A stretch of DNA of 64,000 nt, taken from Burkholderiaceae bacterium. GTDB taxonomy: Bacteria > Pseudomonadota > Gammaproteobacteria > Burkholderiales > Burkholderiaceae_C. The notes under the pieces are model-generated. The model saw only the letters and a program-made list of their open reading frames with translations. It did not search any database and was not told the origin of the DNA. Below are positions 11,881 through 33,349 of the stretch, in pieces (within the stretch, counting starts at the first letter, position 1; each line of letters starts with the position of its first letter). Both the position numbers and the translations under genes were made by a program. Location: the NCBI GenBank assembly GCA_041905785.1, contig JAYRKJ010000005.1:188319-252318 (forward strand), read 5' to 3'.

Positions 11881-11881
11881 T

Positions 11882-13159: not shown

Positions 13160-13177
13160 TCCGAAAGAAGGTAAGCC

Positions 13178-14413
13178 ATGTTGACTCCCACCCGAAGGAC
13201 CGAGGCCGTCAGCCCGTCCGGTACCCGACGCGTCGAGCAGGACGCAGCCGGACTGAGCGCCGAGTTCGTGTTCAGCTCGCCCCACCGCAGTCTGCTGGCT
13301 CGAGGCTGCCTGGCGCGCATCGAAAGCCCCGTGCATGAGCGGGCGCGAGAGGACGATGCCAGACAGTCGGCGTTTCTGAAGACCGTGCAGGCCGCACTGG
13401 ACCTGGCGCGCAAGAAGGGCCAGCGCCATCCGGTCGTCCTGGGCGCCATTCCCTTTGACACGCGCCAGCCTTCGGCCCTGGTGGTGCCGCAGGAGGTCGA
13501 GTTCATCGACCGCGAGGCCTTGATGGCGCGGGCACGGGTCTCGCCTCTGCAGGCACGCGTCGCAGCCGCGCGCAGCATTCCCGACCAGCAGTGCTTCAAG
13601 CAGGGCGTGCGGCAGGCCATCGCCAACTTCCAGCACAGCTGCATCCGCAAGGCCGTGCTGTCGCGTCTGTGCGAGATCGAGCTGGAGCAGCCCGTGGACA
13701 TCGAGGGGCTGCTGGCCAACCTCATGGTGCAGAACCCAGCGGCCTACCACTTCAGGCTGCCCATGGGCGACGGCTCGGCGCTGCTCGGCGCCAGCCCCGA
13801 GCTGCTGCTGCGCCTGCAGGGCCGGCAGGTGGAGACTTTTCCGCTGGCCGGCACCGCGGCGAGGCAGGCATCGGCCGCCGATGACGAGGCCGTGGCGCAG
13901 CGGCTGCTCGCTTCAGGCAAGGATCTGCACGAGCACCGCCTGGTGGTGGAGGACATCCAGCAGCGCCTGCGACCGCTGTGCGACGCGCTGGAGGTGCCGC
14001 CCGGGCCGGCCCTGGTGTCCACGCCCCATCTGTGGCACCTGGGCACGCCCATCGCCGGCCAACTGAAGGCAGGCGCCACCGCGCCGCTGGCCGCGCTGGA
14101 CCTGGCCTGCCTGCTGCATCCCACGCCCGCGGTCTGCGGGTTCCCGCGCCTGCAGGCCAGCAAGCTGGTGCACCTGATCGAACCTTTCGAGCGCGGCCCT
14201 TTCACCGGCATCGTGGGCTGGTGCGACGCCGAAGGGCAGGGCGAATGGGTGGTCACCATCCGCTGCGCCACCGTGCTGGCGCGCCGGCTGCGGCTCTTTG
14301 CAGGCGTGGGCGTGGTGGAGGCCTCCTGCCCCGATGCCGAGTGGGCGGAAACGCAAGCCAAGCTGGGCACCATGCTGCGCGCCATCGGCCTCGGTCCGGA
14401 GGTGCTGGCATGA
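13178..14413 (+). CDS. entC: isochorismate synthase
   Basis: KAVLSR, GASPELL, PLAGT, KDLHEH, LHPTPAVCG, FTGIVGW, FAGVGVV MST-family motifs. Confidence 0.93.
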   Translation: MLTPTRRTEAVSPSGTRRVEQDAAGLSAEFVFSSPHRSLLARGCLARIESPVHERAREDDARQSAFLKTVQAALDLARKKGQRHPVVLGAIPFDTRQPSALVVPQEVEFIDREALMARARVSPLQARVAAARSIPDQQCFKQGVRQAIANFQHSCIRKAVLSRLCEIELEQPVDIEGLLANLMVQNPAAYHFRLPMGDGSALLGASPELLLRLQGRQVETFPLAGTAARQASAADDEAVAQRLLASGKDLHEHRLVVEDIQQRLRPLCDALEVPPGPALVSTPHLWHLGTPIAGQLKAGATAPLAALDLACLLHPTPAVCGFPRLQASKLVHLIEPFERGPFTGIVGWCDAEGQGEWVVTIRCATVLARRLRLFAGVGVVEASCPDAEWAETQAKLGTMLRAIGLGPEVLA

Positions 14414-16107
14414 GCGCGACACCATGCGTGACGCAGGCGAAGCAGCCGTCGCGTCGCATCGAGTTCACGCCCTGGCCGGCCGAGCTGGCGCGCCGCTACC
14501 GCAGCGAGGGTTACTGGCTGGACCGGCCACTGCTGGCGCTGCTGGAGGACGGCCATGCCGCTCAGGCGGGGGTGGCATCGGCCGCGCCGGCGCTGATCTG
14601 CGGCGATCGGCGGTTCAGCTATGGCGACATGGCCGCGGCCGTCGAGCGCCTGGCCGCCAGCCTTTGGGCGCGCGGGCTGCGTGGCCATGACACCGCACTG
14701 GTCCAACTGCCCAACGTGGCGGAGTTCTACCTCGTCTTCTTCGCCCTGCTGCGCATCGGCGTGGTGCCGGTCAACGCCCTGTTCAGCCACAAGCGGCATG
14801 AACTCAGCGCCTATGCCGCGCAGGTCCGCCCGAGCCTGCTGATCGCCGACCGCAGCCATGACTTGTTTGCCGATGAGGGCTTTGCGACCTCGCTGCGGCA
14901 GGAGAACCCGCAACTGCAGCACCTGCTGCTGCGCGGCGAGCCCACGGGACCGCACAGCCTGGACGAGGCAATGGCAGCGGCGCTGCCGGCGAACTGGCCC
15001 GGCGATGCCGCGCCGACGCCGCCTGAGGATGTGGCTTTCTTCCAGCTCTCCGGCGGCAGCACCGGCACGCCCAAGCTGATCCCGCGGACCCACAACGATT
15101 ACGACTACAGCGTGCGCCGCAGCGCGCAAATCTGCCGCTTGAACCCGCAGACGCGCTACCTCTGCGCCTTGCCGGCCGCGCACAACTTCCCGCTGAGCTC
15201 GCCGGGCGCGCTGGGCGTCTTTCACGCCGGCGGCTGCGTGGTGCTGGCCGGCAGCCCGGAGCCCCTGGCCTGCTTCGAGCTGGTCGAGCGCCACCAGGTG
15301 ACGATGACGGGGCTGGTGCCCTCGGCCGTGTCGCTGTGGATGCAGACCGTGCAGGGCGATCCGTCGCGGCGCTCCCAGCTGCGGACGCTGGCGCTGCTGC
15401 AGGTGGGCGGCGCCAGCTTCGCCGAGTCGCTGGCGCGGCGCGTGCCCGAACTGCTGGGCTGCCGGCTGCAGCAGGTCTTCGGCATGGCCGAAGGGCTGGT
15501 GAACTACACGCGGCTGGACGATGACGAGGCCCGGGTCATGGGCACGCAGGGCCGGCCCATGAGTCCGGCCGACGAGGTCGAGGTGCGTGATGCCGATGGT
15601 GTCCCGCTGCCGCCGGGAGAAGTGGGCCTGCTGGCCACGCGCGGCCCTTATACCTTTCGCGGCTACTACCGCAGCCCGGAGCACAACCTGCGCGTTTTCG
15701 ACGCCCGCGGCTTCTACAGCTCCGGCGACCTCGTCCGGCGCCTGCCGGACGGCTATTTGTGCGTGGTCGGTCGGGTCAAGGACCAGATCAACCGCGGGGG
15801 CGAGAAGATCGCCGCCGAGGAGATCGAGGAACTGCTGCTGCGCCATGCCGACATCCAGCAGGTGGGCGTTGTCGCGCTGCCCGACGAGCGCCTGGGCGAG
15901 AAGAGCTGTGCCTGCTTCGTGAGCGACAGGGCGGATCTCAGCGCCGCGCAGCTGCGCCGTTTCCTGCGCGAGCAGGGCGTGGCGGACTACAAGGTGCCGG
16001 ACCGCTTCGAACGCCTGCAGGCGCTGCCGCTGACCGCCGTCGGCAAAGTGGACAAACAAGGCCTGCGTGCCCTCGTTCTGGCCGAGCCATTCCCTTCCAA
16101 GACCTGA
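14410..16107 (+). CDS. entE: 2,3-dihydroxybenzoate-AMP ligase
   Basis: FQLSGGSTGTPKLIPRTHNDY, HNFPLSSPG, QQVFGMAEGL; ATGA overlap with entC. Confidence 0.95.
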   Translation: MSATPCVTQAKQPSRRIEFTPWPAELARRYRSEGYWLDRPLLALLEDGHAAQAGVASAAPALICGDRRFSYGDMAAAVERLAASLWARGLRGHDTALVQLPNVAEFYLVFFALLRIGVVPVNALFSHKRHELSAYAAQVRPSLLIADRSHDLFADEGFATSLRQENPQLQHLLLRGEPTGPHSLDEAMAAALPANWPGDAAPTPPEDVAFFQLSGGSTGTPKLIPRTHNDYDYSVRRSAQICRLNPQTRYLCALPAAHNFPLSSPGALGVFHAGGCVVLAGSPEPLACFELVERHQVTMTGLVPSAVSLWMQTVQGDPSRRSQLRTLALLQVGGASFAESLARRVPELLGCRLQQVFGMAEGLVNYTRLDDDEARVMGTQGRPMSPADEVEVRDADGVPLPPGEVGLLATRGPYTFRGYYRSPEHNLRVFDARGFYSSGDLVRRLPDGYLCVVGRVKDQINRGGEKIAAEEIEELLLRHADIQQVGVVALPDERLGEKSCACFVSDRADLSAAQLRRFLREQGVADYKVPDRFERLQALPLTAVGKVDKQGLRALVLAEPFPSKT

Positions 16108-16115
16108 GAGATTCC

Positions 16116-17000
16116 ATGAGCATTCCTGCCCTTTCTTCTTATCCCATGCCGGCCACCGCGGACTTTCCGAAGTCCAAGGTGTCCTGGCCGCTCCAGTCCT
16201 CGCGTGCCGTACTGCTCGTGCATGACATGCAGGACTACTTCCTGCGCAGCTACGGCGAGCAAAGCCCGCTGCGCGACACCCTGCTGCAGCGCTTGCAGGC
16301 CCTGCGCGACTGGGCCCATGCGCGACAGGTGCCGGTGGTCTACACCGCGCAAGCCGCGGAGCAGGCCCCGCAGGACCGTGCCCTGCTGAACGACATGTGG
16401 GGGCCGGGCCTGACCGCCGCCGACCCGGCGCTTGCGGCGATCGCCGCCCCTCTGGCGCCGGCCGCCAGCGACGTGGTGCTATGCAAATGGCGCTACAGCG
16501 CCTTCCAGCGCTCGGACCTGGCCGCGCTGATGCGTCGGTGGGGCCGCGACCAGCTGCTCATCGGCGGCGTGTATGCGCACATCGGCTGCCTGATGACGGC
16601 GGTCGAGGCCTTCATGCAGGACATCCAGCCCTTCATGGTGGGAGATGCGGTGGCGGACTTCTCGCTCGAGGAACATCAGATGGCGCTTCGCTACGTCGCC
16701 GGGCGCGCGGGCCGGGTGATCAGCAGCGCGGATGTCCTGGCGCTCGACGCCGAGCCCCTGAGCTGGGAACGCTTCAAAGCCAGCGTGCTGGAGCGCCTTC
16801 CCGAAGGGCAGGGTGGCCTGCAGGACGACGACAACCTGCTGGACTTCGGGCTGGACTCCGTGCAGCTGATGGAGCTGATCGCCACCTGGTCGCGCCAGGG
16901 CGTGAAGCTGAGCTTCGAAGCCCTGGCCCGCAGCCCCAGCCTGCGCGCCTGGCGGGCGCTGCTCAGGCAGGTACAGGCGCCTGCAGGGGAGCCGGCATGA
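16116..17000 (+). CDS. entB: isochorismatase / aryl carrier protein
   Basis: [25 protein letters not shown]; C-terminal Ar[14 protein letters not shown]. Confidence 0.95.
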
Positions 17001-17767
17001 ACGCCTCTGGCTTCAAGGGCCGCGTGGTCTGGGTGAGCGGCGCGGGCAGCGGCATTGGCCGTGCCGCGGCACAGGCCTTCCACGATGCCGGCGCGCGCGT
17101 GCTGGGACTGGATCGCCGCTTCGACGAAAGCGGGCCTGAAGGCCAGGCACCCGCTTACGAGACCCTGGTGCTGGACCTCAGCCAGCCCGAGGCCGTGGCG
17201 CGCTTGTGCCGTGATCGGCTGGCGGCTCAAGGGCGCATCGACGTGCTGGTGCATGCCGCGGGCATCCTGCGCATGGGGCGCACGGACGAGTTGAGCCTGG
17301 ACGATTGGCAGCAGAGCCTGCAGGTGAACGCCTCGGCGGCATTCCATCTCTTCCATGCGTTGGTGCCGCAATTCAAGAAGCAAGGGCAGGGCGCCATCGT
17401 CGTGCTCGGCTCCAATGCGGCCCATGTTCCGCGCGTGGGCATGGCGGCCTATTGCGCGTCCAAGGCGGCCCTTCGAAGCCTCAGCCAGTGCGTGGCACTG
17501 GAGCTGGCACCCTTTGGCGTGCGCTGCAATCTCGTGTCACCCGGCACCACGCGCACGCCGATGCTGCAGGCCATGGGCATGGACGAGGCAGGCATCCAGC
17601 GCACCATCGAGGGCCTGCCGGTGCAGTACAAGCTGGGCATTCCGCTGGGCAAGATCGCCGAGACCCGGGACGTGGTGGACGCTGTCCTCTTCCTGGCCTC
17701 GGAGAACGCCGGACACATCACCCTGCACGACCTGCTCGTGGACGGTGGCGCCACCCTGGGAGCATGA
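16997..17767 (+). CDS. entA: 2,3-dihydro-2,3-dihydroxybenzoate dehydrogenase
   Basis: SDR GAGSGIG and YCASK; SNAAHVPR; KLGIPLGKIA; DGGATLGA. Confidence 0.95.
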   Translation: MNASGFKGRVVWVSGAGSGIGRAAAQAFHDAGARVLGLDRRFDESGPEGQAPAYETLVLDLSQPEAVARLCRDRLAAQGRIDVLVHAAGILRMGRTDELSLDDWQQSLQVNASAAFHLFHALVPQFKKQGQGAIVVLGSNAAHVPRVGMAAYCASKAALRSLSQCVALELAPFGVRCNLVSPGTTRTPMLQAMGMDEAGIQRTIEGLPVQYKLGIPLGKIAETRDVVDAVLFLASENAGHITLHDLLVDGGATLGA

Positions 17768-18901
17768 ATGGACACCAAGCTCAGAACGGACCGGCCCGAG
17801 CGGCCGCCGGCGCAGGACCGGTCGATGCGGCCGCCGCAGGTCCTGCCATCACCGCTTCAGCTGCGCCAGCAGACAGACGCCCCGGATCGCGAGGGGCTGG
17901 CTCTGATCGGCACGAGCCGCGCCCGCATTCGCCAACTGCTGCAGGGCCAGGATGACCGGCTGCTGGTGGTCATGGGCCCGTGTTCCATCCATGACCCACG
18001 CGCTGCGCTGGAGTACGCCAAGCGCCTGGCGCGTGAGCGCGACCGGCGCGGCGGCGAGCTGGAGCTGGTCATGCGCGTCTACTTCGAGAAGCCGCGTACA
18101 ACGGTGGGTTGGAAGGGCCTGATCCAGGACCCCTGGCTCGACGGCACGGGACAGCTGCACGAAGGGCTGTTCCTGGCCCGCCAGCTGCTGGTCGACATCA
18201 ACCGCCTGGCGCTGCCTGCCGCGACGGAATTCCTGGATCCCTTGGTGGCGCCTTTCGTGGAGGACCTGGTGAGTTGGGGCGCCGTGGGGGCGCGAACGAC
18301 CGAAAGCCAGACCCATCGCGAGATGGCTTCGGGTTTGCCCATGCCGATCGGATTCAAGAACGGCACGGACGGGAACGTGCGCATTGCCTGCGACGCGATC
18401 GAGGCGGCCTCCGTGCCGCACCACCGCCTGGCCCTGCATCCTGCCGGCAGTGTGGTGGCCCTGCGCACCAGGGGCAATCCCGACGGCCACCTGATCCTGC
18501 GCGGCGGACTGGAGCCCAACTACCAGGCCGGTCCCGTGGCGCAAGCTTGCGAGGCCTTGAGGAAGCGGGGGCTGCCGACGCGCCTGGTGGTGGACTGCAG
18601 CCATGGCAACAGCAGCAAGCAGCATGAACGGCAGCGGCTGGTGGCGGCAGACGTTGCTGCGCGCATCGCGGCAGGCGAGCGCCATGTTTGCGGCCTGATG
18701 GTGGAGAGCCACCTGAAGGCCGGCAGCCAGCCCTTCGTCGCCGGCCTTCACAAGGCCGATGCGCTGGTCTACGGGCAAAGCATCACCGATGGCTGCCTGG
18801 ACTGGCCATCCAGCCTGGAGCTGCTGGACGAGCTGCAGACGGCGGTGATCGCCCGCCGTTCGCTGCGCCGGACGCAGGGTCTGAACTTGACGGGCGCATG
18901 A
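17768..18901 (+). CDS. DAHP synthase, class I-alpha (siderophore-cluster copy)
   Basis: GPCSIHD, YFEKPRTTVGWKG, GARTTESQTHR, GFKNGT, DCSHGNS, SITDGC. Confidence 0.93.
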   Translation: MDTKLRTDRPERPPAQDRSMRPPQVLPSPLQLRQQTDAPDREGLALIGTSRARIRQLLQGQDDRLLVVMGPCSIHDPRAALEYAKRLARERDRRGGELELVMRVYFEKPRTTVGWKGLIQDPWLDGTGQLHEGLFLARQLLVDINRLALPAATEFLDPLVAPFVEDLVSWGAVGARTTESQTHREMASGLPMPIGFKNGTDGNVRIACDAIEAASVPHHRLALHPAGSVVALRTRGNPDGHLILRGGLEPNYQAGPVAQACEALRKRGLPTRLVVDCSHGNSSKQHERQRLVAADVAARIAAGERHVCGLMVESHLKAGSQPFVAGLHKADALVYGQSITDGCLDWPSSLELLDELQTAVIARRSLRRTQGLNLTGA

Positions 18902-18964
18902 CGGAGCAAAGCATGGCCATGTGATTTGCTTTGCATCTAATGCCAGTTTCTCAATTGCCGTAAC

Positions 18965-18979
18965 TGAGGCTCAATCTCA
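18965..18979. promoter_or_regulatory. candidate Fur-like 7-1-7 box upstream of second DAHP synthase
   Basis: TGAGGCT-C-AATCTCA; 9/14 to TGATAAT-N-ATTATCA and similar to the ftrA box; 45 nt before ATG. Confidence 0.33.
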
Positions 18980-19024
18980 TTCACTCGCTGGCCTGGAGGA
19001 CAGCGATGCTGAAGGAGATGTGAC

Positions 19025-20110
19025 ATGACCGTCGAAGTCGCCCGTTCCGCGCCCGGCTTTGTGGCCGAGCTGCTGACGCCAGGACAACTCAAGCGCCTGA
19101 TCCCCTGCAGTGCGGCCTCTGCCGCCACAGTGCAGCAGGCGCGCAAGAACATTCGGAGCATTCTGCAGGGGGGCAGTAACCGGCTGCTCGTCCTGATCGG
19201 CCCTTGCTCGATCCATGACTGCATGGCTGCCCGCCACTATGCGCGGCGCCTGCTGCGCATGCGAGAGCAGTGGGGTCAGGAGCTCGAAATCGTGATGCGT
19301 GCCTACCTGGAAAAACCCAGGACCACGCTGGGCTGGACGGGGCTGCTCAACGACCCCTTTCTAGACGGCAGCGGCCTGATTTCCCATGGGCTGGAGATCG
19401 GCCGCAGCCTGCTGGAGGAGCTCAACGCCATGGGCGTGCCGGTGGCCCACGAGATCGTGGCACCGGCCTCCTTGAGCTACCTCGATGACCTGCTGTCCTG
19501 GGTGGCCATCGGCGCTCGTACATCGGCGTCGCCGGTGCATCGTCAGCTTGCTTCGGGGCTGGACATCCCTGTCGGATTCAAGAATGGCGTGGAAGGGCAG
19601 GTGCAGGTGGCGGTGGAAGGCATCTTGTCGGCGCGGCATCCCCACAGCTATCTCGCGGTTCGACCGCAGGGGTCGCTCGGGATCTACAACAGCAGCGGCA
19701 ACGTCGACGCCCACCTGGTGATGCGCGGCGGCAAGCATCCCAATTTCGACGCCCAGAGCCTGGCCGAGGCAGCGTCCCTGCTGCGTGCGGCCGGCCTTGC
19801 CGACACCCTGGTGGTCGATGCCAGCCACGGAAACAGCCAGAAGGACCATCGCCGCCAGGGATTCGTGTGCGCTGACCTAGCAGGGCAGATCAGCGGCGGC
19901 AACCGTTCCATTGCCGGCGTAATGATTGAGAGCAACCTGCAGGCCGGCCGGCAGGACATCAAGCCTGGCAAAGTGCCGGATCCCGAGCTGAGCGTCACGG
20001 ATGCCTGCATAGGCTGGGATGAAAGCGCCGAGATCCTGGGCATGCTCGCGCAAGCGGTGAAGGCACGACGTCAGCGCAACCGGGCGCCTGCTTCCGAGGT
20101 CACTTTCTGA
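19025..20110 (+). CDS. DAHP synthase, class I-alpha (second, divergent copy)
   Basis: GPCSIHD, YLEKPRTTLGWTG, AIGART, GFKNG, DASHGNS, GVMIES, SVTDACIGW; AAGGAG RBS. Confidence 0.9.
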   Translation: MTVEVARSAPGFVAELLTPGQLKRLIPCSAASAATVQQARKNIRSILQGGSNRLLVLIGPCSIHDCMAARHYARRLLRMREQWGQELEIVMRAYLEKPRTTLGWTGLLNDPFLDGSGLISHGLEIGRSLLEELNAMGVPVAHEIVAPASLSYLDDLLSWVAIGARTSASPVHRQLASGLDIPVGFKNGVEGQVQVAVEGILSARHPHSYLAVRPQGSLGIYNSSGNVDAHLVMRGGKHPNFDAQSLAEAASLLRAAGLADTLVVDASHGNSQKDHRRQGFVCADLAGQISGGNRSIAGVMIESNLQAGRQDIKPGKVPDPELSVTDACIGWDESAEILGMLAQAVKARRQRNRAPASEVTF

Positions 20111-20154
20111 GGCCACTGTCTGAGGCCACTGTCTGAGGCCACTGTCTGAGGCCA
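20106..20154 (+). repeat. 13-bp tandem repeat, 3.8 copies
   Basis: TCTGAGGCCACTG x3 plus TCTGAGGCCA; first copy contains the DAHP synthase stop codon. Confidence 0.95.
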
Positions 20155-20302
20155 ATTCTCGAGGAACGCCAGGCCAGCCGCGCGTGGCAGCCCCCCCCTG
20201 ACGGCACCCACCCGGCCGGACGGGCCGCACCGCCTTCTCTTCATTCGAACGCCCCCCCGACGCGATCACCCTCGGGAAGCGCCCATTTCAAGGACTTGCA
20301 CC

Positions 20303-22300
20303 ATGAACGCCCCTCTGGACACCCCGCTGCTGCGGGAATCGGCATCGGAAGCCGACGCCGACCGCGCGTTGGAGCGCCCATCGCTTCCGGCACAGACGCA
20401 TGCGCCCAATCCCTCGGTGCAGCTCGCGCTCGGCCTCGGCAGCTTGCGCCAGGCCGCCGCGAGCCTGCATGCACAAGGCGGATTCGCGACGCGCGCCCGC
20501 CAGTTGCTGCAGCTTTGCGAGCATCTGCAACTGCATCGCGAATCGCTGATGCATGCCGGCTGGCTGGTGGGCTACGCGCCCTGGGACCAGCACCTGGACT
20601 TCGACGCCGGCCTGCTCGCGGTGCGCAGCATGGCGCAGCAGGTGGCCAACGAATGGCCCGATTCCATGCTGGTGCCGAAGTCCGAGCCGCATGCGCTGGA
20701 CAAAGAGGGCCGGTGCTGGACGGCCGAGGTGCTGGGCCGCGCCGCGGGCGTGGACGTGTTGATCCTGGGCCTGCACCGGCCCTGCGCACACCTGCTGCTG
20801 GGTTTCGCGAGCGCCTGGCTCGCCGGCCGATCCTGCCTGGTGCTCAGTCCGGAAGAGCATCCCCTGCTGGACTCCCTGCTGCTGGCGCTGCGCAGAGGTC
20901 TGCCGCACGGCGGCGCAGCGCTGCGCTGGATGGTGGGCGTCGACACGGCCCATGCCTTGGCGCAGCTGGAGTCGGCCGATCACGTGCAGGTCTGGAGCAC
21001 CCCGGTCGCAGGCGAGCTGCGCTGGGAAGGCATGCAGAGCTGTGCAGCCGATCGCACATTGCATCTGGCCGCCCCCGGCCTGGCGGTGCTGGATGATGCC
21101 GTCGCGGCGGGCAGTCCGATGTTCGAGAGAGTCGTCGACCTCGTGGCTTTGGGCGCCATGGCCGTCCACGGCCTGCATGAACATGCGGTGCGCACCGTCT
21201 GGCTGCCGCGCGAGCTGTCGACGGCCTTTGAAGCCGCCCTGCAGCAGCGTTGGCAGGCCTGGCACGGCAGCCGTCCCTCGCAGCACTGGCAAGGCAGCGC
21301 CGCGGCCGTGCAGCGGCTCGCCATGCAGTCGTGGATCCAGGACAGGCTGCACCAGGGTGCCACCCTGAGCGGTGCGACCGCGCAGGGGCCTGCCGTCCTC
21401 CGGCTGGCATCGCCCCATGACGCCGACGAGCGGGGCTTGGCGGCCCCGCCCCTGGGGCCGGTGCTCGCGCTCTGGGCCTATGACGACGTGGCGGCGTTGA
21501 GGCAAGCCCTGGAGGACAGCCACAGCGGCCGTCGTGCCGGCCTGGCCGTGCTGGCCTGCGGCGCTGAAGCGTGCAGGCGGCAGTGGGGCGCAGCATTGGC
21601 CCGCCGGCATCGCGCGCTGCACATCGTCGCAAACCCGCCCACGGTGCCGGCGGACCCCGACGATGCCTTGCGCCATGCCTGGGAATTGCTGGCCTCCCTG
21701 GACAAGGTCAGCGCCGAAGCGTCCCTCAAGGCATTGCTTCCTTCGTGCGCCGTGCTGGCCGCGCCGGCCGAACTCGGCGAATGCCTCCAGCAGTACCTGC
21801 CCGGCAGCCCGGTGCGCGAACTGGACCTCCACCCCTTTCGCTGCCACTTCGAAGACTTGCGCGTCGGCGACTCGCTGCTCACGCATCGCCGCACGGTCAC
21901 CGAGGCCGATATCGCGGCCTTCGGCGGGGTGTCGGGGGACTACTTCTACATGCACTTTGACGCGGAGGCGGCTGCCGCGTCTCCGTTCGGGCGCCGCATC
22001 GCCCACGGCTATTTCGTGCTGTCTGCAGCGGCCGGCCTGTTTGTCTGGCCCGGCGAAGGGCCGGTGCTGGCGAACTATGGCCTGGACAATCTGCGCTTCA
22101 TCCAGCCTGTCGGGATCGGCGACACCATCCAGGCTCGCCTGACCTGCAAGCGCAAACTGGACAAGGCACGCGCTGGCGGCAAGCGCGGCCAGGGGGTGGT
22201 GGTTTGGGACGTGCTCGTCTGCAATCAGCGTGGCGAAGCCGTGCTGCGCTACGACATCCTGACGCTGGTGGCCCGGCGAGGGCCGGAGGGGCAGGCATGA
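20303..22300 (+). CDS. PaaZ-like oxepin-CoA hydrolase with degenerate aldehyde dehydrogenase domain and intact MaoC hydratase domain
   Basis: C-terminus matches PaaZ closely ([53 protein letters not shown]); GQKCTAIRR-equivalent reads GLHEHAVRT. Confidence 0.85.
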
Positions 22301-22326
22301 GCAGCAGGCCGGCTCGCGCCTGGCGT

Positions 22327-23157
22327 TCACCGGCTGGGGGCCCGCTTGGCGAAGTAGTGAGCGGGTGAGTCGCCAAAGCAGCGGCGGAACATCGCGATGA
22401 AGTTGCTGGGCGTCGCGTAGCCCAGCGCATCGGCCACATTGGCCACGCTGTCGCCGCGGGCCAGCCGCTCCAGGGCATGGGTGAGCCGCGCCTGCTGACG
22501 CCACTGCGCAAAGCTGACCTGAGTCTCGGCCATGAACAGCCGGCCCAGAGTGCTCGGCGACAGACCCGCCCATTGGGCCCAATCGTCCATGGTGCGCTTG
22601 TCCTCGGGCTGTTCCAGGATGGCGTTGGCGATGCGCAGCAGCCGGCGGTCCTCGGGCATGGGCAGGTGCAGGGGCTCATGCGGTGCGTGGCGCATCTCGT
22701 CCAGCAGTACGGCCAGCATGCGCTCCTGTTCTTCGTTGAGACGCTCTTGCAGGGTCCAGGACACCGCCCGCCGAACCAGCGCCCGCATCAACTCGCTGAT
22801 GCCGATCACGCAAGGCGTGTCCGGCAGCGCCTGGCAGACCGAGGGAGCGATCACCACACTCCAGCCGCTCATGGCGCCGCTGATGCTGACCTTGTGAGCA
22901 ACGCCGGGCGGGATCCAACCGGCGCGATGGGGCGGCAGCAGCCAGGAGCCATGGGGGGTGCGCACATGCACGAGACCGTTTTCCACGCAGAACACCTGCC
23001 CGCGCAGATGGCTGTGCCAGTCGATTTCACGCGTGCCGAGACGGTACTCCGCCTTTGCATCGTCCTCGCCCCATATGGCGATCAGCGGCGGCCCGTCGGC
23101 ACGCTCGCTGAGATCGGGGAGGGCGTCGAGCCCCTGGGGAAATGCGGCATTGGCCAT
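22327..23157 (-). CDS. AraC-family regulator with cupin sensor (NimR-like)
   Basis: DWHSHLRGQ cupin, WLLPPHRAGWIPPG, C-terminal HTH LGYATPSNFIAMFRR; divergent from efflux operon. Confidence 0.92.
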   Translation of the reverse strand: MANAAFPQGLDALPDLSERADGPPLIAIWGEDDAKAEYRLGTREIDWHSHLRGQVFCVENGLVHVRTPHGSWLLPPHRAGWIPPGVAHKVSISGAMSGWSVVIAPSVCQALPDTPCVIGISELMRALVRRAVSWTLQERLNEEQERMLAVLLDEMRHAPHEPLHLPMPEDRRLLRIANAILEQPEDKRTMDDWAQWAGLSPSTLGRLFMAETQVSFAQWRQQARLTHALERLARGDSVANVADALGYATPSNFIAMFRRCFGDSPAHYFAKRAPSR

Positions 23158-23247
23158 GACTGAAATTCAGTATTTTTAGATCGAACAACGCTATCACGCT
23201 TTTCCGGCTTCGACCAAGAATTCCTGCCAGGGAAAGGCAACATCACC

Positions 23248-24729
23248 ATGAAGCGCCATACACGCAGACCAGAAGCAGTACCTCAGCAGGACCATCGCGC
23301 CGCGGCTTGGCGGCGCAGTCGGACGGCCGCAGGCGCATGCCTGCTGGTCTTCGCTGCCCAGCTGAGCGGCTGCGCCAGCATGGGCCCGGAAACGCCGCGC
23401 GTGGCCTTGCTGGACGCCCAGCAGCTGAAGCTCTCGGACGCCCCTGCGGCGGCGCCCAGCCCCTGGCCCCGCCTGGACTGGTGGCAGGCGCTGGGCGACC
23501 CGCAGCTCAATGCCCTGATCGATGATGCCCTGTCGTCTGCTCCCGACCCCATCGCGGCCGACGCGCGTCTGCGCCAGGCACGCGCCGCCGCAGGCATCGA
23601 CGCAGCCGCGCTGCAGCCGCAGCTGACGGCCAGCGTCGGCTGGCAGGGGGTTCGGCAGTCCTCGCAAGCCGTCCCGCCCAGCGAAGGCGGGGGGCAGTTC
23701 AAGCGGAAGTGGGAGGGCAGCCTGGGTCTGGACTGGACGCCGGACCTGTGGGGCGGTCGCCGCGCCGCCTGGACGGCCGCGCTCGGCGCCGTGCGCGCCG
23801 CGGAGGTGTCGGCACAGGACGCCCGCATCCAGCTGACGGTGGCGGTCGCCCAGGCCTATATGCAGCTGGCCTATGCCCATGTGCAGGGTGACATCGCCCG
23901 CGCCGAGCAGGAGCGCGTGGCCGAAGTCCAGCGGCTGACCCAGCAGCGCGTCAGCAGCGGCCTGGGCACGCAGGCACAGTTGCGCCAGACGGACAGCGAC
24001 ATGGCCAGCGCCGCCCAGCAGCGCCTGATGGCCGAGCGCCTGGTGTCCATGGCCCAGACCACGCTGTCGGTGCTGCTGGGCAAGGGTCCGGACCGAGGTG
24101 CCGCCGTGGGACGGCCGGCCTGGCCATCCGGCCCCGTTCTGGCCGCTCCCGGGTGGCTGCCGCTGGAGTTGCTCAGCCGCAGGGCCGACGTCGTGGCCGC
24201 GCGCTGGCGGGTGGAGTCCACCATGCAGCACATCACGTCGGCCAAGACCGCCTTCTTGCCCAATCTGAACCTGGCGGCCCTGGTCGGCGTGGCCGCGACG
24301 CAATGGAGCGACCTGCTTCGCCACGGCTCGGGCGTCTACTCGCTCAGCCCGGCGCTGAGTCTGCCCATCTTCGATGCCGGCAGACGCAGCGCCGAGCTGG
24401 CCGTGCAGGAAGCGCGGTACGACGAGGCGGTCGCTCAATACAACCAGACCTTGGTCAGGGCGGTGAACGAGGTGGCCGACCAGATCCAGGCGCAGCGCTC
24501 GCTCGCCGAGCAGCTGGAACAGCAGCAGCGTGCCAGGGACGCCGCACATGACGCCTGGCAGATGGCTGAGCAGCGCTACAAGGCCGGCGTCGGAAGCTAC
24601 CTGGATGCCCTCTCGGTCCGCCAGCAGCTGCTGCAGGCGGAGCAGCGCCTGGCGGCACTGCAGGCGCAGCGCATCCAGGACGGCCTGCTGCTGGTCAGGG
24701 CATTGGGCGGCGGATTCCGTGCGGAATAA
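23248..24729 (+). CDS. efflux outer-membrane lipoprotein (NodT/OprM family)
   Basis: LSGC lipobox, WWQALGDPQLNALI, ELLSRRADV, LVRALGGG. Confidence 0.92.
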   Translation: MKRHTRRPEAVPQQDHRAAAWRRSRTAAGACLLVFAAQLSGCASMGPETPRVALLDAQQLKLSDAPAAAPSPWPRLDWWQALGDPQLNALIDDALSSAPDPIAADARLRQARAAAGIDAAALQPQLTASVGWQGVRQSSQAVPPSEGGGQFKRKWEGSLGLDWTPDLWGGRRAAWTAALGAVRAAEVSAQDARIQLTVAVAQAYMQLAYAHVQGDIARAEQERVAEVQRLTQQRVSSGLGTQAQLRQTDSDMASAAQQRLMAERLVSMAQTTLSVLLGKGPDRGAAVGRPAWPSGPVLAAPGWLPLELLSRRADVVAARWRVESTMQHITSAKTAFLPNLNLAALVGVAATQWSDLLRHGSGVYSLSPALSLPIFDAGRRSAELAVQEARYDEAVAQYNQTLVRAVNEVADQIQAQRSLAEQLEQQQRARDAAHDAWQMAEQRYKAGVGSYLDALSVRQQLLQAEQRLAALQAQRIQDGLLLVRALGGGFRAE

Positions 24730-24792
24730 GGGACTCAGTAGTGCGCCTGAGGCTTGCAAGCCCGGGCATCGAAGACAAAAGGGGAAGCAATC

Positions 24793-26064
24793 ATGAGTGC
24801 AGAGAAAAGCGTGCAGACACCCGGTGCGGCGGCCACGCCCACCGATCCGGCGGCAGGCGCCACGAACCGTCGGCGCAACTTGCTGCTCAAGGCCTTGCTC
24901 GTCGGGGCTGGCCTAGGCGGGGCCCTCTGGGCCTTGTGGTACCAGCAGATTGGCCGTTGGCACGAGGAAACCGACAACGCCTATGTGCAGGGGAACCTGG
25001 TCCAGATCACGCCTCAGACGGCGGGGACGGTGGTGTCCATCGCGGCGGATGTCGGCGAGCCCGTGGGGCTGGGGCAGACGCTGATCTCCCTGGATCGCAC
25101 CGACAGCGAAGTGGCGCTGGCCTCTGCCATGGCCGATCTCTCGACGGTCATGCGCAAGGTCAAGGGTCTCTACACGCAGGAGCGCGGACTGCGCAGCACC
25201 ATCCAGGGAGCCGAAGCGGATGTGCAATCCCGCCGCGTCACCCTGGACAAAGCGCGCGCCGACTACCAGCGCCGCAAGGAACTGGCACGCTCGGGCGCGA
25301 TCTCGGATGAAGAGCTGGCCCATGCAAGAGACACGCTGTCCGCCGCGCAGAGCGCCTTGAACGCGTCGCAGAGCGCGGTGGCAAGCCTGGAGCAGCAGTA
25401 CCAAGGGAGCAAGGCCTTGGTCGACGGCACCGTGGTGGTCTCTCATCCCGAAGTCCAGAAGGCCGCCGCCACGCTGCGCTCCGCCTATCTCGACCAGGTG
25501 CGGACAGCACTGATCACGCCGGTCGCGGGGCATGTGGCCCAGCGCTCCGTGCAGCTGGGTCAACGCGTGGCCCCGGGCAGCAGCCTGATGTCCGTGCTGC
25601 CGCTGGACCAGGTCTGGGTGGAGGCGAATTTCACCGAAACGCAGCTGGCTCACATCCGGATCGGCCAGCCGGTGGAGCTGCGTGCTGACGCCTACGGCGA
25701 CGCTGTGAGCTACTCCGGCCGCGTGGTCAGCCTGGGGCTGGGAACCGGCAGCGCGTTTTCACCGCTGCCAGTCCAGAACGCCACCGGCAACTGGATCAAG
25801 ATCGTCCAGCGCCTGCCGGTACGGATCGAGCTGACCGATCGCAAGCAGCTGGTCCAGCATCCGCTTCGCCTGGGCTTGTCCATGCACGTCAAGGTCGATG
25901 TGCATGACGAAAGCGGCCCCATGCTGGTCGAGCAGCCACGGGCCAAGCCCAAGCTCAGCACGGACGTGTACAGCAAACAGGTCGACGCTGTGGACAGCCT
26001 GATCGATCGCATCGTCCGCGGCGCGCCGATCGGCACGCCCGCGGTCCGCGGAGCCCAGCGATGA
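24793..26064 (+). CDS. emrA: EmrA-family membrane fusion protein
   Basis: ETDNAYVQG, GTGSAFSPLP.QNATGNWIKIVQRLPVRI. Confidence 0.92.
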   Translation: MSAEKSVQTPGAAATPTDPAAGATNRRRNLLLKALLVGAGLGGALWALWYQQIGRWHEETDNAYVQGNLVQITPQTAGTVVSIAADVGEPVGLGQTLISLDRTDSEVALASAMADLSTVMRKVKGLYTQERGLRSTIQGAEADVQSRRVTLDKARADYQRRKELARSGAISDEELAHARDTLSAAQSALNASQSAVASLEQQYQGSKALVDGTVVVSHPEVQKAAATLRSAYLDQVRTALITPVAGHVAQRSVQLGQRVAPGSSLMSVLPLDQVWVEANFTETQLAHIRIGQPVELRADAYGDAVSYSGRVVSLGLGTGSAFSPLPVQNATGNWIKIVQRLPVRIELTDRKQLVQHPLRLGLSMHVKVDVHDESGPMLVEQPRAKPKLSTDVYSKQVDAVDSLIDRIVRGAPIGTPAVRGAQR

Positions 26065-27659
26065 GCAGCGCATCCGCGACCGCCACCCTGGGGCCGGGCG
26101 AGCCCCGCGGCGGGCCACCCGCGCCGCCAGCGCCAGCGCCGGCGCCGGGCGCTGCGGAATTCCTGCCGCAAAGCGTGCCGCTGACCACCGTGGGACTGGC
26201 CCTGGCCGTCTTCATGCAGGTGCTGGACGGCACCATCGCCAACGTGTCGCTGCCCACCATCGCGGGCAACCTGGGCGTCAGCACCAACCAGAGCGCCTGG
26301 GTGATCACCACCTTCTCGGTATGCAACGCCATCGCCCTGCCATTGACCGGATTCCTGGTCCGTCGCGTGGGGCAGGTGAGGCTTTTCATCTGGTCGACGC
26401 TGCTGTTCACGCTGGCCTCGCTGCTGTGCGGGCTGGCGCAGAGCCTGGGCGCCCTGGTGCTGTTCCGCGCACTGCAAGGCGCCGTGGCGGGTCCGATGAT
26501 CCCGACCACGCAAGCTTTGATGCTGTCCATCTATCCGCCACACCGGCGAGGATTCGCCCTGTCCATGATCGCGATGGTGACGGTGGTGGCGCCGATCGCT
26601 GGACCCTTGCTCGGCGGATGGATCACCGACAGCTACTCGTGGCAGTGGACCTTCCTCATCAACGTACCGATTGGGCTGTTCGCCGCTGCCGCGATTTCCA
26701 ATCAGATGCGAAGCAAGCCGGAGAAGACCGAGGCCGTCAAGGTCGACCACATCGGCCTGGCCACGCTGGTCCTGGGCGTTGGCGCGCTGCAGGTGGTCCT
26801 GGACAAAGGCAATGACGAGGACTGGTTCCAGTCGCCCTTCATCGTGGTCATGTCGCTGGTGGCCGCCATCAGCCTGGCGGTCTTCCTGATCTGGGAGCTG
26901 CACGAGCGCAACCCCATCGTCAACCTCCGGCTCTTTGCCAATCGCAACTTTGCGGCGGGCACGGTGACGCTCGTGCTGGCCTATTCCGCCTTCTTCGCGG
27001 TCAACGTCATCGTGCCCCAGTGGCTGCAGCGCACCATGGGCTACACGGCCATCTGGGCGGGGCTCGCGGCAGCGCCCATGGGCATCCTGCCGGTGCTGTT
27101 GACGCCCTTCATGGGCAAGTACGCGCCGCGCTTCAACATGCGCTGGATGGTCTGCAGCGCCTTCGCGATCCTGGGCGCGGCGTCCTTCATCCGGTCTGGC
27201 TTCTTTCTCGGCGTGGACTTCCAGCATGTGGCGGCGGTCCAGTTGCTGCAGGGCCTGGGGCTGGCCCTCTTCATCATGCCGATCAATGCCATCCTGCTGT
27301 CCGACCTGAAGCCACAGGAGATCGCCGCAGCGTCCGGGCTCTCGACCTTCAGCCGCACCCTGGGTGCCAGCTTTGCCGTCTCGATCACCGCGCTGGTCTG
27401 GGACCGTCGAGCGGTGCTGCACCACGCCCATCTGGCCGAAGGGCTGCCACCCGGCACGCTTGGGCAGCCGGCCCTGCCGCTGGCGCCGGGCGACCAGGCC
27501 TTTGCATTCCGGCTCGACCACTACCTGGACCAGCTCGCCTACCAGATGTCGTTCAACGACGTGGCCTACGCCCTGGGCTGGGTCTTCATGCTGGCCATCG
27601 CCGTGGTGTGGCTGGCCAAGCCGCCCTTCACCCCCAAGGCGCCGCCAGGCAAGCGCTGA
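26061..27659 (+). CDS. emrB: EmrB/QacA (DHA2) MFS efflux pump
   Basis: MQVLDGTIANVSLP, GPLLGGWITDSYSWQWTFLINVPIG, LDKGNDEDWF; 14-TM pattern. Confidence 0.92.
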   Translation: MSSASATATLGPGEPRGGPPAPPAPAPAPGAAEFLPQSVPLTTVGLALAVFMQVLDGTIANVSLPTIAGNLGVSTNQSAWVITTFSVCNAIALPLTGFLVRRVGQVRLFIWSTLLFTLASLLCGLAQSLGALVLFRALQGAVAGPMIPTTQALMLSIYPPHRRGFALSMIAMVTVVAPIAGPLLGGWITDSYSWQWTFLINVPIGLFAAAAISNQMRSKPEKTEAVKVDHIGLATLVLGVGALQVVLDKGNDEDWFQSPFIVVMSLVAAISLAVFLIWELHERNPIVNLRLFANRNFAAGTVTLVLAYSAFFAVNVIVPQWLQRTMGYTAIWAGLAAAPMGILPVLLTPFMGKYAPRFNMRWMVCSAFAILGAASFIRSGFFLGVDFQHVAAVQLLQGLGLALFIMPINAILLSDLKPQEIAAASGLSTFSRTLGASFAVSITALVWDRRAVLHHAHLAEGLPPGTLGQPALPLAPGDQAFAFRLDHYLDQLAYQMSFNDVAYALGWVFMLAIAVVWLAKPPFTPKAPPGKR

Positions 27660-27703
27660 GCGGCAAGACCATGAGACCCATACACAAACTGAAAGGAGCA
27701 GCC

Positions 27704-28102
27704 ATGGACATGGCCATTGAAACAGCCCAAGTGTTTGAGATGAGCAATTTCCCCATCGTGACCTTCCGCAATGCGGCCATCCGGCCGGGTTATGCGGCGC
27801 GATGGGCGCGGGAGATGGAGGCCCTCATGGCGCGCGGCGAACCCTTCGTCATCGTCTTTCTTCCGAACCGTCCCGAAGAGGATCAGGAAGATCGCAAGCT
27901 GCGCGCCGTCTGGCTGAAGACCCACAAGCATGAGCTGTCCGAGGTGTGCCGCGCCCTCATCACCGTGGAGCCGGACGCCATCCAGCGCGCCGAGGCGGCC
28001 AAGGAAGCGCAAGCCATGCAGAAGGCCTTTGGCCTCCTGTTGGTGAGCGTGGCGACGCAAGAGGAAGCATGGGATCTGGCCACCACCCTCGTGGCGGCCT
28101 GA
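27704..28102 (+). CDS. hypothetical protein, 132 aa (possibly STAS/SEC14-like)
   Basis: AAAGGAG RBS, typical codon use, FPIVTF...RGEPFVIV segment; within operon. Confidence 0.6.
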   Translation: MDMAIETAQVFEMSNFPIVTFRNAAIRPGYAARWAREMEALMARGEPFVIVFLPNRPEEDQEDRKLRAVWLKTHKHELSEVCRALITVEPDAIQRAEAAKEAQAMQKAFGLLLVSVATQEEAWDLATTLVAA

Positions 28103-28180
28103 CCCATGTCGGGCTGCGCGCGGCGCTTCATCGGCGCCGCGACGAACTGATCATCACCTTTGAACCAGAAGGAACTCGAC

Positions 28181-29083
28181 GTGAGTCAAGCGAAGCGAAA
28201 AGTACCGGCCCTGCGCCGCTCGTGGCTGTTTCTTGCCGGCGCCGACCGGCAGGCGCTGCTCGATGGCATCCACTCAGGGGCCGATGTGCTGGTCCAGGAG
28301 CTGGAGACCTTCACGCCACCGGCCCGACGTCCGGAAGCCCGGCAACTGAGCGGGGAGGTCATCCACGGCTGGCGTGAGGCTGGCATCCTCAGTTCGGTTC
28401 GGGTCAATCCGCTGGAAAACGGCGGCATGGAGGACCTCGCGGCCGTGATGCACCATCGGCCCGACATCATCATGATGTCCTACATCTCCACGCCGGAGCA
28501 GGTCGTCGCCCTGGACCAGGCCGTCTCCCACTTCGAGCGGGAGTACGGCATCGAGGCCGGCTCGACCGAGCTGGTGCCCAATATCGAAAGCACCCTGGGC
28601 GTGGTCAACACCATGGCCATCGGCAAATGCAGCCCGCGCGTCAGCGCATTGCTGGTCGCCACCGAAGACATGGTGGCGGACCTGGGTGCCCGCCGCACCC
28701 GGGCCGGCCATGAGCTGGACTACGTGCGCTCGCGATTCCTCGTGGAGTGCGCGGCCATTGGCATGCCGGCCATCGACTGCCCCTACAGCTACTCGGACAA
28801 CGAAGGGGCGGAGCTGGACATGCAGCGCTGCCGCGACCTGGGCTTTCGGTCCAAGGCCATCGTGAACGCCCAGTTCACGTCCGTGGTCAATCGCTGGCTC
28901 ACGCCCTCGGCCGCGGAGCTGGCACTGGCTCGGCGGGTGATCCAGGCCTTCGACCTCGCTCGCAGCCAGTCCGGCGGAAAACGGGTGCCGGCCGCCGTGG
29001 TGGACGGCTTCCTGGCTGAGATTCCCGACTACCTCGCGGCCCAGCGCCTGATCGCACGGGCCCTTCAATTCGGCATGGAGTAA
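28181..29083 (+). CDS. CitE/HpcH-HpaI aldolase-lyase family protein
   Basis: RRSWLF, SGADV...ELE, VRVN, IES, EDM.ADLG, AIDCP, GFRSK; GTG after AAGGA. Confidence 0.82.
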   Translation: MSQAKRKVPALRRSWLFLAGADRQALLDGIHSGADVLVQELETFTPPARRPEARQLSGEVIHGWREAGILSSVRVNPLENGGMEDLAAVMHHRPDIIMMSYISTPEQVVALDQAVSHFEREYGIEAGSTELVPNIESTLGVVNTMAIGKCSPRVSALLVATEDMVADLGARRTRAGHELDYVRSRFLVECAAIGMPAIDCPYSYSDNEGAELDMQRCRDLGFRSKAIVNAQFTSVVNRWLTPSAAELALARRVIQAFDLARSQSGGKRVPAAVVDGFLAEIPDYLAAQRLIARALQFGME

Positions 29084-29090
29084 GAACGGC

Positions 29091-29744
29091 ATGGAATCCC
29101 TGATTCAAAAATTCAAATCGCTGCCCGTCCTGACCGGGCAGTTGTCAGACTTCGATACCGCGGCGGTGCCCAGCAATCCGCAGGCGCTGTTCATGCAGTG
29201 GCTCGATGAAGCCCTTGAGCATGGCATCTGTGAGCCGCATGTAACGACCTTGTCTACGGTGGATCAGGACGGCGCGCCGGACGCCCGCTCGGTGGTCCTT
29301 CTCGACGTGGGCGAGGACGGCTGGCATTTCGCCGCCAATGCGGCCAGCCCGAAGGGCCGCCAACTGGCGAAGCAGCCGCAGGCCGCGATGACCTTCTACT
29401 GGGCCGGCCTGGGGCGCCAGATCCGCTTGCGGGGCGAAGTGAAGGCGCTGGCCCGCGAGGCCGGGCTGGCTGACTTCCGCAGCCGCCCCGAGAAGTCGCG
29501 CGCGGCCATTCTGGCCGCACGGCAAAGCGAGGTGCTTGAGCAGGCCGCTGACCTGGACAGCGCGCTGGCCGTGCAGCTGGCACGCCTCCAGGAAGATCCC
29601 GAGCTGGCCTCGGCGCACTGGACGATGTACGCACTCAAGCCCTTGGACGTCGAGTTCTGGCAGTCCAACGGCCAGCGCCGCTTCACCCGTCTGCGCTACC
29701 GGCGCCAGGGGCAGCAGTGGACACGACAGCTGCTGTGGCCATGA
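29091..29744 (+). CDS. pyridoxamine 5'-phosphate oxidase-like FMN protein (PdxH/PhzG family)
   Basis: TLSTVD..G.PDARSV, SPKGRQL, FYW..LGRQIRLRG, VEFWQ, RLRY. Confidence 0.88.
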   Translation: MESLIQKFKSLPVLTGQLSDFDTAAVPSNPQALFMQWLDEALEHGICEPHVTTLSTVDQDGAPDARSVVLLDVGEDGWHFAANAASPKGRQLAKQPQAAMTFYWAGLGRQIRLRGEVKALAREAGLADFRSRPEKSRAAILAARQSEVLEQAADLDSALAVQLARLQEDPELASAHWTMYALKPLDVEFWQSNGQRRFTRLRYRRQGQQWTRQLLWP

Positions 29745-30967: not shown

Positions 30968-30977
30968 AAGGGAGAGC

Positions 30978-33225: not shown

Positions 33226-33349
33226 GCCATAGCCGGCGCCGGACCTGACCTTTGTCCGCCTGAAGGGCGCCGGCGCCGCAGGCGCCGGGCATGTGCATTG
33301 CCAGCAGCGAAGACCCACCCGAGGGGCAACTGACTTTGCGGAGAATGCC

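Follow-up and report, generated by a model that had tools for sequence, protein, structure and literature searches.

Within a 64,000-nucleotide stretch of a Burkholderiaceae genome (GenBank assembly GCA_041905785.1, contig JAYRKJ010000005.1; hereafter, the window), the gene at positions 20303-22300 encodes a second copy of PaaZ, the bifunctional enzyme of phenylacetate catabolism, in which the aldehyde dehydrogenase (ALDH) domain at the N-terminus is catalytically dead and the C-terminal MaoC-type enoyl-CoA hydratase (ECH) domain is preserved. It appears quite likely that this dead copy functions solely as an oxepin-CoA hydrolase, releasing a semialdehyde that cyclises to a tropone precursor for TdaE, TdaD and the sulfur-adding enzymes encoded in the same gene cluster. 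The substrate and the product we infer; the loss of residues, the conservation of the hydratase, the fold, the selection, the paralogy and the cluster context are observed for the dead copy, as detailed below.

The reading frame is uninterrupted for 665 codons and follows a Shine-Dalgarno sequence, AAGGA, located about 8 nt upstream; the N-terminal start is conserved in the family of dead copies as MNAxxD/MTVHAD. The intact frame was already described in an earlier note made from the sequence alone, and the protein can indeed be aligned with E. coli PaaZ over its entire length. In Pfam, the sole match of the protein is to the MaoC dehydratase domain (residues 522-622, E = 1.7e-29), whereas Aldedh (PF00171) does not match it at E <= 1 and has no precomputed match in any family member. 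The PaaZ equivalog model, TIGR02278, spans the whole protein but scores 290.7 bits, far under the 562.8-bit cutoff, which leaves the protein outside the equivalog. A phmmer search against the PDB sequences matched E. coli PaaZ (6jql) over residues 48-659 with E = 5e-72. A promoter and terminator scan of 18800-23300 gave nothing usable.

The ALDH half of the protein has lost catalytic, cofactor-binding and channelling residues alike. The segment GLHEHAVR sits on GQKCTAIR of the E. coli enzyme in HMMER, in MAFFT and in the profile-profile alignment with hhalign (98.2% probability, 376 columns), and the three methods likewise agree in pairing a 13-letter window segment with GQKCTAIRRIIVP of E. 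coli PaaZ; given this agreement, the position of the catalytic Cys295 is now occupied by Glu293 (codon GAA), exactly the replacement that the earlier note had put forward. The oxyanion Asn158 has become His158 (GLHRP), and Phe159 and Trp162 have become Arg and Ala. The NADP+-binding motifs are gone: Lys181 is replaced by Leu (LVLSPE), FTGS by VWST, and EAFGPV by PPLGPV. Of these motifs, only FTGS was on the earlier list of losses, from which the losses of Asn158, Lys181, EAFGPV and Lys69 were absent. For the general base Glu256, the loss holds, but the particular replacement by His that had been assigned to it does not: HMMER and L-INS-i pair it with His254 (the segment LHLAAPG cited in the earlier note begins at residue 253), MAFFT-auto with Ala and hhalign with Asp250, and all three candidate positions vary across the family (H/Q/A; D/E/Q). 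Because the candidate differs with the alignment and the positions vary, we can say from these alignments that Glu256 is not conserved in the dead family, but cannot name its exact replacement. Lys69, the mutation of which caused the strongest slowing of E. coli growth on phenylacetate in a study of channelling (PMC6739347), is Leu in the window protein (Leu or Ile in the family), and R116 is variable; on the MaoC side, R613, K631 and K636 are retained, so that the channelling set as a whole, which includes K69 and R116, is broken. Among the 123 ALDH columns that are invariant in 19 canonical PaaZ sequences, 20 are kept, 67 are variable, and 36 contain a different residue that is itself invariant in the family, these last being concentrated in the Asn, Cys and EFGPV loops.

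The hydratase half is as highly conserved as the earlier note held it to be, with 45 of the 46 MaoC columns that are invariant in the 19 canonical sequences preserved in the dead copy. The catalytic pair D561/H566 of E. coli corresponds to D546/H551 in the window protein, and Asp561, His566 and Gly584 are all invariant in the family. The domain is 73% identical to the MaoC domain of PaaZ1, the canonical copy in the same genome, and carries a family-specific signature, FVWPGEGP, where the canonical proteins have FVSPAPGP.

The dead domain is nevertheless retained, as the earlier note had surmised. An AlphaFold2 model of the 665-residue protein, built from a 13-sequence alignment, reaches a predicted local distance difference test score (pLDDT) of mostly 80-93 over residues 40-480 and displays ALDH-like secondary structure, including the strands of the oligomerisation subdomain. 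In Foldseek searches with this model, PaaZ 6jql comes first (E = 7.8e-39), followed by BoxD-type ALDHs (TM score 0.69-0.70 on the target) and then by ordinary ALDHs; thus, the predicted fold of the N-terminal half is that of an ALDH despite the absent Pfam match. We estimated nonsynonymous (dN) and synonymous (dS) divergence and their ratio (omega) by the Nei-Gojobori method in the same seven genomes of the genus for both copies. In PaaZ1, omega is about 0.10 for the ALDH domain (mean dN 0.018) and about 0.016 for the MaoC domain (mean dN 0.003); in the dead copy, it is 0.21-0.37 for the ALDH-like domain (range from pairs with dS < 0.5; mean dN 0.34) and 0.04-0.09 for the MaoC domain (mean dN 0.065). 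For the ALDH-like domain, the upper 95% codon-bootstrap limits are at most 0.54, and none of the 1000 replicates reached 1. The domain is therefore relaxed approximately three-fold yet clearly selected, and an unconstrained look is limited to the first 47 residues. A pseudogene was considered and rejected because omega is well below 1 and the frame is intact in seven genomes. In the same genome pairs, dS is about 0.18 in PaaZ1 (G000 C31:113099-115120) versus approximately 0.6-0.7 in the dead copy and its orthologues from six genomes of the genus; either the cluster is much older or has been exchanged between lineages, or else PaaZ1 has been homogenised or is strongly codon-biased.

The canonical PaaZ1, encoded on another contig (C31) of the same genome, scores 987 bits with TIGR02278 and has every motif intact. 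It adjoins paaE/D/C/B/A, paaK, paaI, paaG and paaY, with paaJ and paaH located elsewhere; hence, oxepin-CoA can be made in this organism, and catabolism has an enzyme of its own. Both PaaZ copies are present in seven of the eight genomes of the genus, the eighth having PaaZ1 only, and in all seven the frame of the dead copy is free of stops and frameshifts. The named relatives that possess the family are Roseateles flavus, R. subflavus, Mitsuaria sp. WAJ17 and Burkholderiaceae metagenome-assembled genomes. A survey of 33 further relatives and of 400 Burkholderiales genomes, the latter drawn evenly and with two candidates scored in each, detected no other full-length PaaZ below the threshold.

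The dead copy belongs to a conserved cluster of about 18 kb (19025-37153; Table 1). The order of the genes for DAHP synthase, dead PaaZ, an AraC regulator (on the opposite strand), an OEP-HlyD-major facilitator superfamily (MFS) pump, a 132-aa hypothetical protein, a CitE/HpcH-like protein, PNPOx, a Cys/Met-type pyridoxal phosphate (PLP)-dependent lyase and a glutathione S-transferase (GST) is the same in all six related loci. Beyond the GST gene, the cluster continues with glutamine amidotransferase (GATase), TetR and LuxR genes and then, on the minus strand and 13-15 kb downstream of the dead PaaZ, with TdaD-, TdaE- and TdaC-like genes. TdaE was found in six of the seven genomes with the dead copy, in five of these on the same contig at a distance of 13-15 kb. 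BLASTP searches with TdaA, TdaB, TdaC and TdaF of Phaeobacter inhibens recovered no homologues in the window, where Pfam revealed a TdaC-like gene of the prephenate dehydratase (PDT) type; the GST belongs with the 'TdaB?' type of Burkholderia and not with the P. inhibens type. No protein part of the cluster is less conserved than the N-terminal half of the dead copy.

Table 1. Features of the PaaZ2-like gene and of the surrounding cluster (window coordinates).
Feature	Position	Strand	Remarks
PaaZ2-like coding sequence	20303-22300	+	665 aa, stop included; TIGR02278 290.7 bits vs cutoff 562.8
N-terminal tail, residues 1-47	20303-20443	+	weak conservation, low model confidence; omega ~0.25-1.5; pLDDT 28-58
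Degenerate ALDH-like domain, residues 48-470	20444-21712	+	no Pfam Aldedh match; hhalign 98.2% to canonical PaaZ; pLDDT mostly 80-93; Foldseek matches PaaZ/BoxD/ALDHs
His158 codon at the oxyanion Asn158 position (GLHRP vs AFNFP)	20774-20776	+	family-invariant
Glu293 codon GAA at the catalytic Cys295 position	21179-21181	+	family-invariant
MaoC (R)-hydratase domain, residues 509-660	21827-22282	+	catalytic Asp546 (21938-21940) and His551 (21953-21955); Pfam MaoC E = 1.7e-29
DAHP synthase	19025-20110	+	always directly upstream of the PaaZ2-like gene
AraC-family regulator	22327-23157	-	75% identical to the L045 counterpart
OEP / HlyD-EmrA / DHA2-MFS efflux pump	23248-27659	+	
132-aa hypothetical, CitE/HpcH-like, PNPOx, Cys/Met-PLP C-S lyase, GST, GATase	27704-32350	+	46-73% identical to the Burkholderia cluster
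TetR regulator	32479-33225	+	74% identical to the L041 TetR
LuxR-type regulator	33790-34560	-	
tdaC-like PDT	34920-35525	-	
tdaE-like flavoprotein	35554-36717	-	51% identical to P. inhibens TdaE
tdaD-like thioesterase	36746-37150	-	61% identical to P. inhibens TdaD

The window cluster matches, gene for gene, the 'tda gene cluster' that Duan et al. 2021 proposed for ditropolonyl sulfide in Burkholderia cenocepacia Bp8974 (PMC8283759, Table S3). Common to the two are TdaE, the CitE-like protein, PNPOx, the cystathionine-lyase-type PLP enzyme, GST, GATase, the small hypothetical protein, the MFS/EmrA/OEP pump, a helix-turn-helix regulator, DAHP synthase and TdaD; in excess of these, the window cluster has the dead PaaZ, the TdaC-like gene and TetR. 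A locus from the Burkholderia cepacia complex (L047) shows 51-74% identity to the window over 10 proteins, along with a weaker LuxR match (29%), and the block of five genes from CitE through PNPOx, the lyase and GST to GATase is in identical order. The 132-aa protein (27704-28102) has no Pfam match, but is conserved in the Burkholderia (46%) and L045 (44%) clusters, always beside the MFS pump gene. The literature search for tropones in Roseateles or Mitsuaria, or for tdaE of Burkholderiales, found none. The cluster is flanked by a catecholate siderophore nonribosomal peptide synthetase (NRPS) cluster (856-18901), with an enterochelin esterase, an NRPS of C-A-T-C-A-T-TE domain order, EntC/E/B/A-like genes and a second DAHP synthase, and by an Ftr/P19-type iron uptake operon (37407-42028). 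Because tropolones bind iron, such an iron-related neighborhood fits; the adjacency to the siderophore cluster is kept in only two of the six related loci.

Dead PaaZ copies extend beyond the genus. Searching 1.84 billion representative proteins with a profile of the dead domain, we obtained only three matches at E <= 1e-30, namely, the family representative, one fragment, and P0243. The latter reads GQHEDAIR, that is, has Lys294 replaced by His and Cys295 by Glu, as in the window family, and joins this family and P0244 (Cys to Val, shortened by about 110 residues) in one clade (100/97). The P0243 gene directly follows its own paaK-paaABCDE, in a cluster with DAHP synthase, a CitE-like protein (53% identical to that of the window) and TetR (74%). 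The metagenome contig concerned (L041:1-21995, 63% GC) encodes PaaK-PaaABCDE, a PaaG-like ECH, P0243, an indolepyruvate-type oxidoreductase, DAHP synthase, an HpaB-type monooxygenase, a short-chain dehydrogenase/reductase, the CitE-like protein, a resistance-nodulation-division pump and TetR, seemingly a self-contained route from shikimate to the tropone core, with no TdaE in view.

The weaker profile matches are enriched in other dead copies, among them P0245 (Cys to His, Glu to Thr, with a gamma-type hydratase), P0246 (Cys to Ser) and P0254 (L046:10001-12055, a metagenome contig; Cys to Arg, Asn to Ser). P0254 sits in a different context, among type II polyketide synthase-like genes for ketosynthase, chain-length factor, acyl carrier protein and ketoreductase, together with a P450 and a zinc alcohol dehydrogenase. 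P0245 comes from a cluster of the same type as that in the window (metagenome contig L045:1-10696, 50% GC), comprising PNPOx, a CitE-like protein, TdaD, TdaE, two AraC genes, a small hypothetical protein, MFS and EmrA, with identities to the window proteins of 75% for AraC, 67% for MFS, 66% for the CitE-like protein and 51% for TdaE. Orthology of P0245 with the window family was rejected (approximately unbiased (AU) test, p = 0.00024, for a group that was named with the tree already in view). Therefore, homologous clusters appear to have acquired or replaced a dead PaaZ more than once, which suggests that the copy in L045 was recruited independently. More generally, there are signs, new to this work, that ALDH-dead PaaZ copies arose repeatedly.

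In the scenario that we favor, PaaK, PaaABCDE and PaaG, encoded on the other contig, would make oxepin-CoA, the ring of which would be opened by the hydratase domain of the dead copy. The N-terminal domain being devoid of the Cys nucleophile, the oxyanion Asn, the NADP site and the Lys69 CoA anchor, the resulting aldehyde would be neither channelled nor oxidised. Once freed, it would undergo Knoevenagel condensation to 2-hydroxycyclohepta-1,4,6-triene-1-formyl-CoA, a ring closure described in reports as rapid and spontaneous (PMC8283759, PMC11110157). The TdaE-like dioxygenase and the TdaD-like thioesterase of the cluster could then turn this compound into tropone or tropolone, and sulfur would probably be added by the products of the GST, GATase and C-S lyase genes. 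That an ALDH-inactive PaaZ yields this ring compound, as the earlier note stated, matches the behavior of the PaaZ-E256Q mutant, which has no ALDH activity and produces precisely this substrate of TdaE (PMC8283759). The proposal made in that note, a dedicated shunt enzyme for tropone synthesis, gains support, so far as sequences can tell, from the residue losses, the intact hydratase, the separate PaaZ1 and paa set, and the TdaD-, TdaE- and TdaC-like neighbors. The ALDH-fold domain, we infer, is most likely retained as a scaffold holding together the domain-swapped dimer, in which two hydratase domains would form the active site. A structural need for such a domain is made plausible by TrlA, an ECH-only protein of Streptomyces that is inactive in vitro (PMC11110157).

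Several observations weigh against this scenario. In the model, pLDDT is low over the MaoC domain. As the ECH-only proteins, Ech of Pseudomonas donghuensis, which is active (PMC10454607), and TrlA, show, there is no general need for an ALDH-fold scaffold. The gene list of the homologous Burkholderia cluster (Table S3 of PMC8283759) contains nothing PaaZ-like, and therefore, the dead PaaZ would be accessory to the pathway rather than part of its core. Here, the organization of catabolism might matter, given that Burkholderia employs separate ALDH and ECH proteins (PMC8283759): extrapolating from few cases, we hypothesize that a dedicated non-channelling hydrolase may be needed where the catabolic PaaZ is fused and channelling, as in Roseateles and Phaeobacter, but would not be where the two activities are separate, as in Burkholderia, with its homologous cluster without the gene. 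Finally, the old active-site positions are now held by charged residues that are invariant in the family, Arg108, His158, Arg159, His292 and Glu293, and these could mean a new function and not mere scaffolding. With the CoA-semialdehyde bound in it, the rebuilt pocket might catalyse the Knoevenagel closure or guide it; alternatively, it might pass the product on to TdaE or serve as a ligand sensor. Such a role would account for the 36 of the 123 canonical-invariant columns that were replaced by other family-invariant residues in the three loops around the former active site, for the His-Glu pair at 294-295 that is common to the family and the distant relative P0243 (GQHED), and for the purifying selection on the domain. 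However, the cyclisation is reported to proceed fast and spontaneously (PMC8283759, PMC11110157), the CoA anchor Lys69 is gone, the residues found there in other dead PaaZ lineages are quite unlike these (R, G, H, S, V), and the charged residues could simply be salt bridges filling the old tunnel, so that we deem a new pocket unlikely. Should it, nevertheless, guide the closure of the seven-membered ring, a step regarded as spontaneous would turn out to be enzyme-assisted.

The opposite view, that the N-terminal half is a decaying relic, with selection on the hydratase only and a frame that stays open by chance or because truncation disturbs expression, draws on the dN of the ALDH-like domain, about 19 times that of the PaaZ1 ALDH domain in the same genome pairs, with an omega about three times as high, on the poor conservation of this half relative to the rest of the cluster, and on P0244, which is already missing about 110 residues. 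This is very unlikely in the face of the omega values (0.21-0.37, with 0/1000 bootstrap replicates reaching 1), the absence of stops and frameshifts in seven genomes, the 34% of columns that are family-invariant, and the confident ALDH fold in the model. A little more doubtful still is the possibility that the substrate of the hydratase is not oxepin-CoA but another enoyl-CoA from the pathway, for example a tropone-CoA intermediate formed later: the MaoC dN is about 20 times that of PaaZ1 when identical genome pairs are compared, and a signature particular to the family, FVWPGEGP, stands in place of FVSPAPGP, but 45 of the 46 PaaZ-MaoC invariants are kept along with 73% identity to the MaoC domain of PaaZ1, the family adjoins canonical Burkholderiales PaaZ in the tree, and its relative P0243 directly follows paaKABCDE in L041. 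That the protein is still a bifunctional PaaZ, oxidising the aldehyde through other residues, is scarcely credible; the acidic Asp250 pairs with Glu256 in hhalign, but the Cys nucleophile, Asn158, the FTGS/Lys NADP site and the Glu of EFGPV are all missing, the protein falls under the TIGR02278 cutoff and has no Pfam Aldedh match, and a functional PaaZ1 is present in the genome. On balance, then, a hydrolase that opens oxepin-CoA for tropone synthesis, with its dead domain kept as a scaffold, remains the reading that we prefer.

The synthesis of tropone and tropolone antibiotics branches off where phenylacetate catabolism leaks. To our knowledge, the deliberate opening of this leak by producers has been known only by inference from PaaZ2 of P. 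inhibens, and TrlA, the single natural shunt hydrolase that has been assayed in vitro, showed no activity. The Roseateles/Mitsuaria family represents an independent and more extreme solution of the PaaZ2 kind, under selection and within a cluster related to the one proposed for ditropolonyl sulfide in Burkholderia. Taken with the lineages in which the Cys became Arg, Gly, Val, His or Ser, the Cys to Glu replacement in this family suggests that tropone biosynthesis has recurrently been reached through a duplicated PaaZ with a disabled ALDH half. A PaaZ without this Cys could thus serve as a simple marker for genome mining, and the dead copy itself as a natural alternative to PaaZ-E256Q for in vitro work on the pathway.

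E. coli PaaZ (P77455; 6jql) is bifunctional, catabolic and channelling; the window protein shares its two-domain architecture, fold and hydratase catalytic pair, but lacks Cys295, Asn158, the NADP motifs and Lys69, and is only 22% identical to it in the ALDH part. The engineered PaaZ-E256Q shows by experiment that an ALDH-dead PaaZ makes the tropone precursor. The shunt idea is, accordingly, already accepted as the explanation for proteins of this known kind, with PaaZ2 of P. inhibens (Cys to Arg) as the textbook case, and the novelty claimed in the earlier note was overrated inasmuch as an ALDH-dead PaaZ2 beside tda genes was already described in P. inhibens (PMC7497051, PMC8283759) and one is suspected in Janthinobacterium (PMC13163973). 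In P. inhibens DSM 17395, this protein is PGA1_262p00800, encoded on plasmid pPGA1_262 beside tdaF and other tda genes; its ALDH domain 'shows low similarity', with the Cys changed to Arg, and it was regarded as the driver of precursor formation (PMC7497051), with a boost of the shunt product as its proposed effect (PMC7497051, PMC8283759). A paaZ2 transposon mutant makes no roseobacticide (PMC4807370). Like the window protein, P. inhibens PaaZ2 is a full-length second copy beside PaaZ1, with the catalytic Cys replaced, the ECH residues intact and a link to a tropone cluster, that of tropodithietic acid (TDA). The two differ in that PaaZ2 has Asp in place of Asn, keeps a basic residue at position 69, is still detected by Pfam Aldedh and retains 49 of the 123 invariants, against 20 in the window protein, with which it shares 30% identity over the whole length and 18% over the ALDH part. 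In a maximum likelihood tree of the hydratase region, the window family is a single clade (100/100) in the beta/gamma group next to canonical Burkholderiales PaaZ, whereas the Phaeobacter/Cribrihabitans PaaZ2 clade nests within alphaproteobacterial PaaZ. Constraining all dead copies to one clade costs 93 log-likelihood units (AU p = 1.6e-8), and with the clades separate, common descent with P. inhibens PaaZ2 is rejected. The dead PaaZ of the window is, judging from the tree, of independent betaproteobacterial origin, which is new relative to the P. inhibens case.

The paaZ-like gene in the Janthinobacterium TDA cluster has been suspected to be analogous, with 'functionally relevant differences' (PMC13163973, 2026). 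We find that the copy in the J. lividum cluster (L039:1681-3735, minus strand) is indeed dead, with Gly in place of both Cys295 and Glu256 (GQDGAAIR, VSLGAASL). It resembles the window copy in being a catalytically dead betaproteobacterial PaaZ within a tdaE-containing cluster, but is otherwise near-canonical, keeping Asn158, Lys181, FTGS and EAFGPV, and branches among canonical Burkholderiales PaaZ, outside the window family, although a common origin is compatible with the tree (AU p = 0.30-0.41). The canonical ALDH invariants that are kept form an erosion series, from 96 of 123 in Janthinobacterium through 49 in the Roseobacter lineage to 20 in the window family, in which alone of the three Lys69 is lost; of the proteins compared, the window family appears to have the most eroded ALDH domain, a new observation. 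For TrlA of the Streptomyces trl cluster and Ech of P. donghuensis, the same role is proposed, opening the ring of oxepin-CoA without oxidation for tropolone synthesis; they consist of a single MaoC domain with no ALDH-fold domain, whereas the window protein keeps a domain of some 460 residues that is still under selection.

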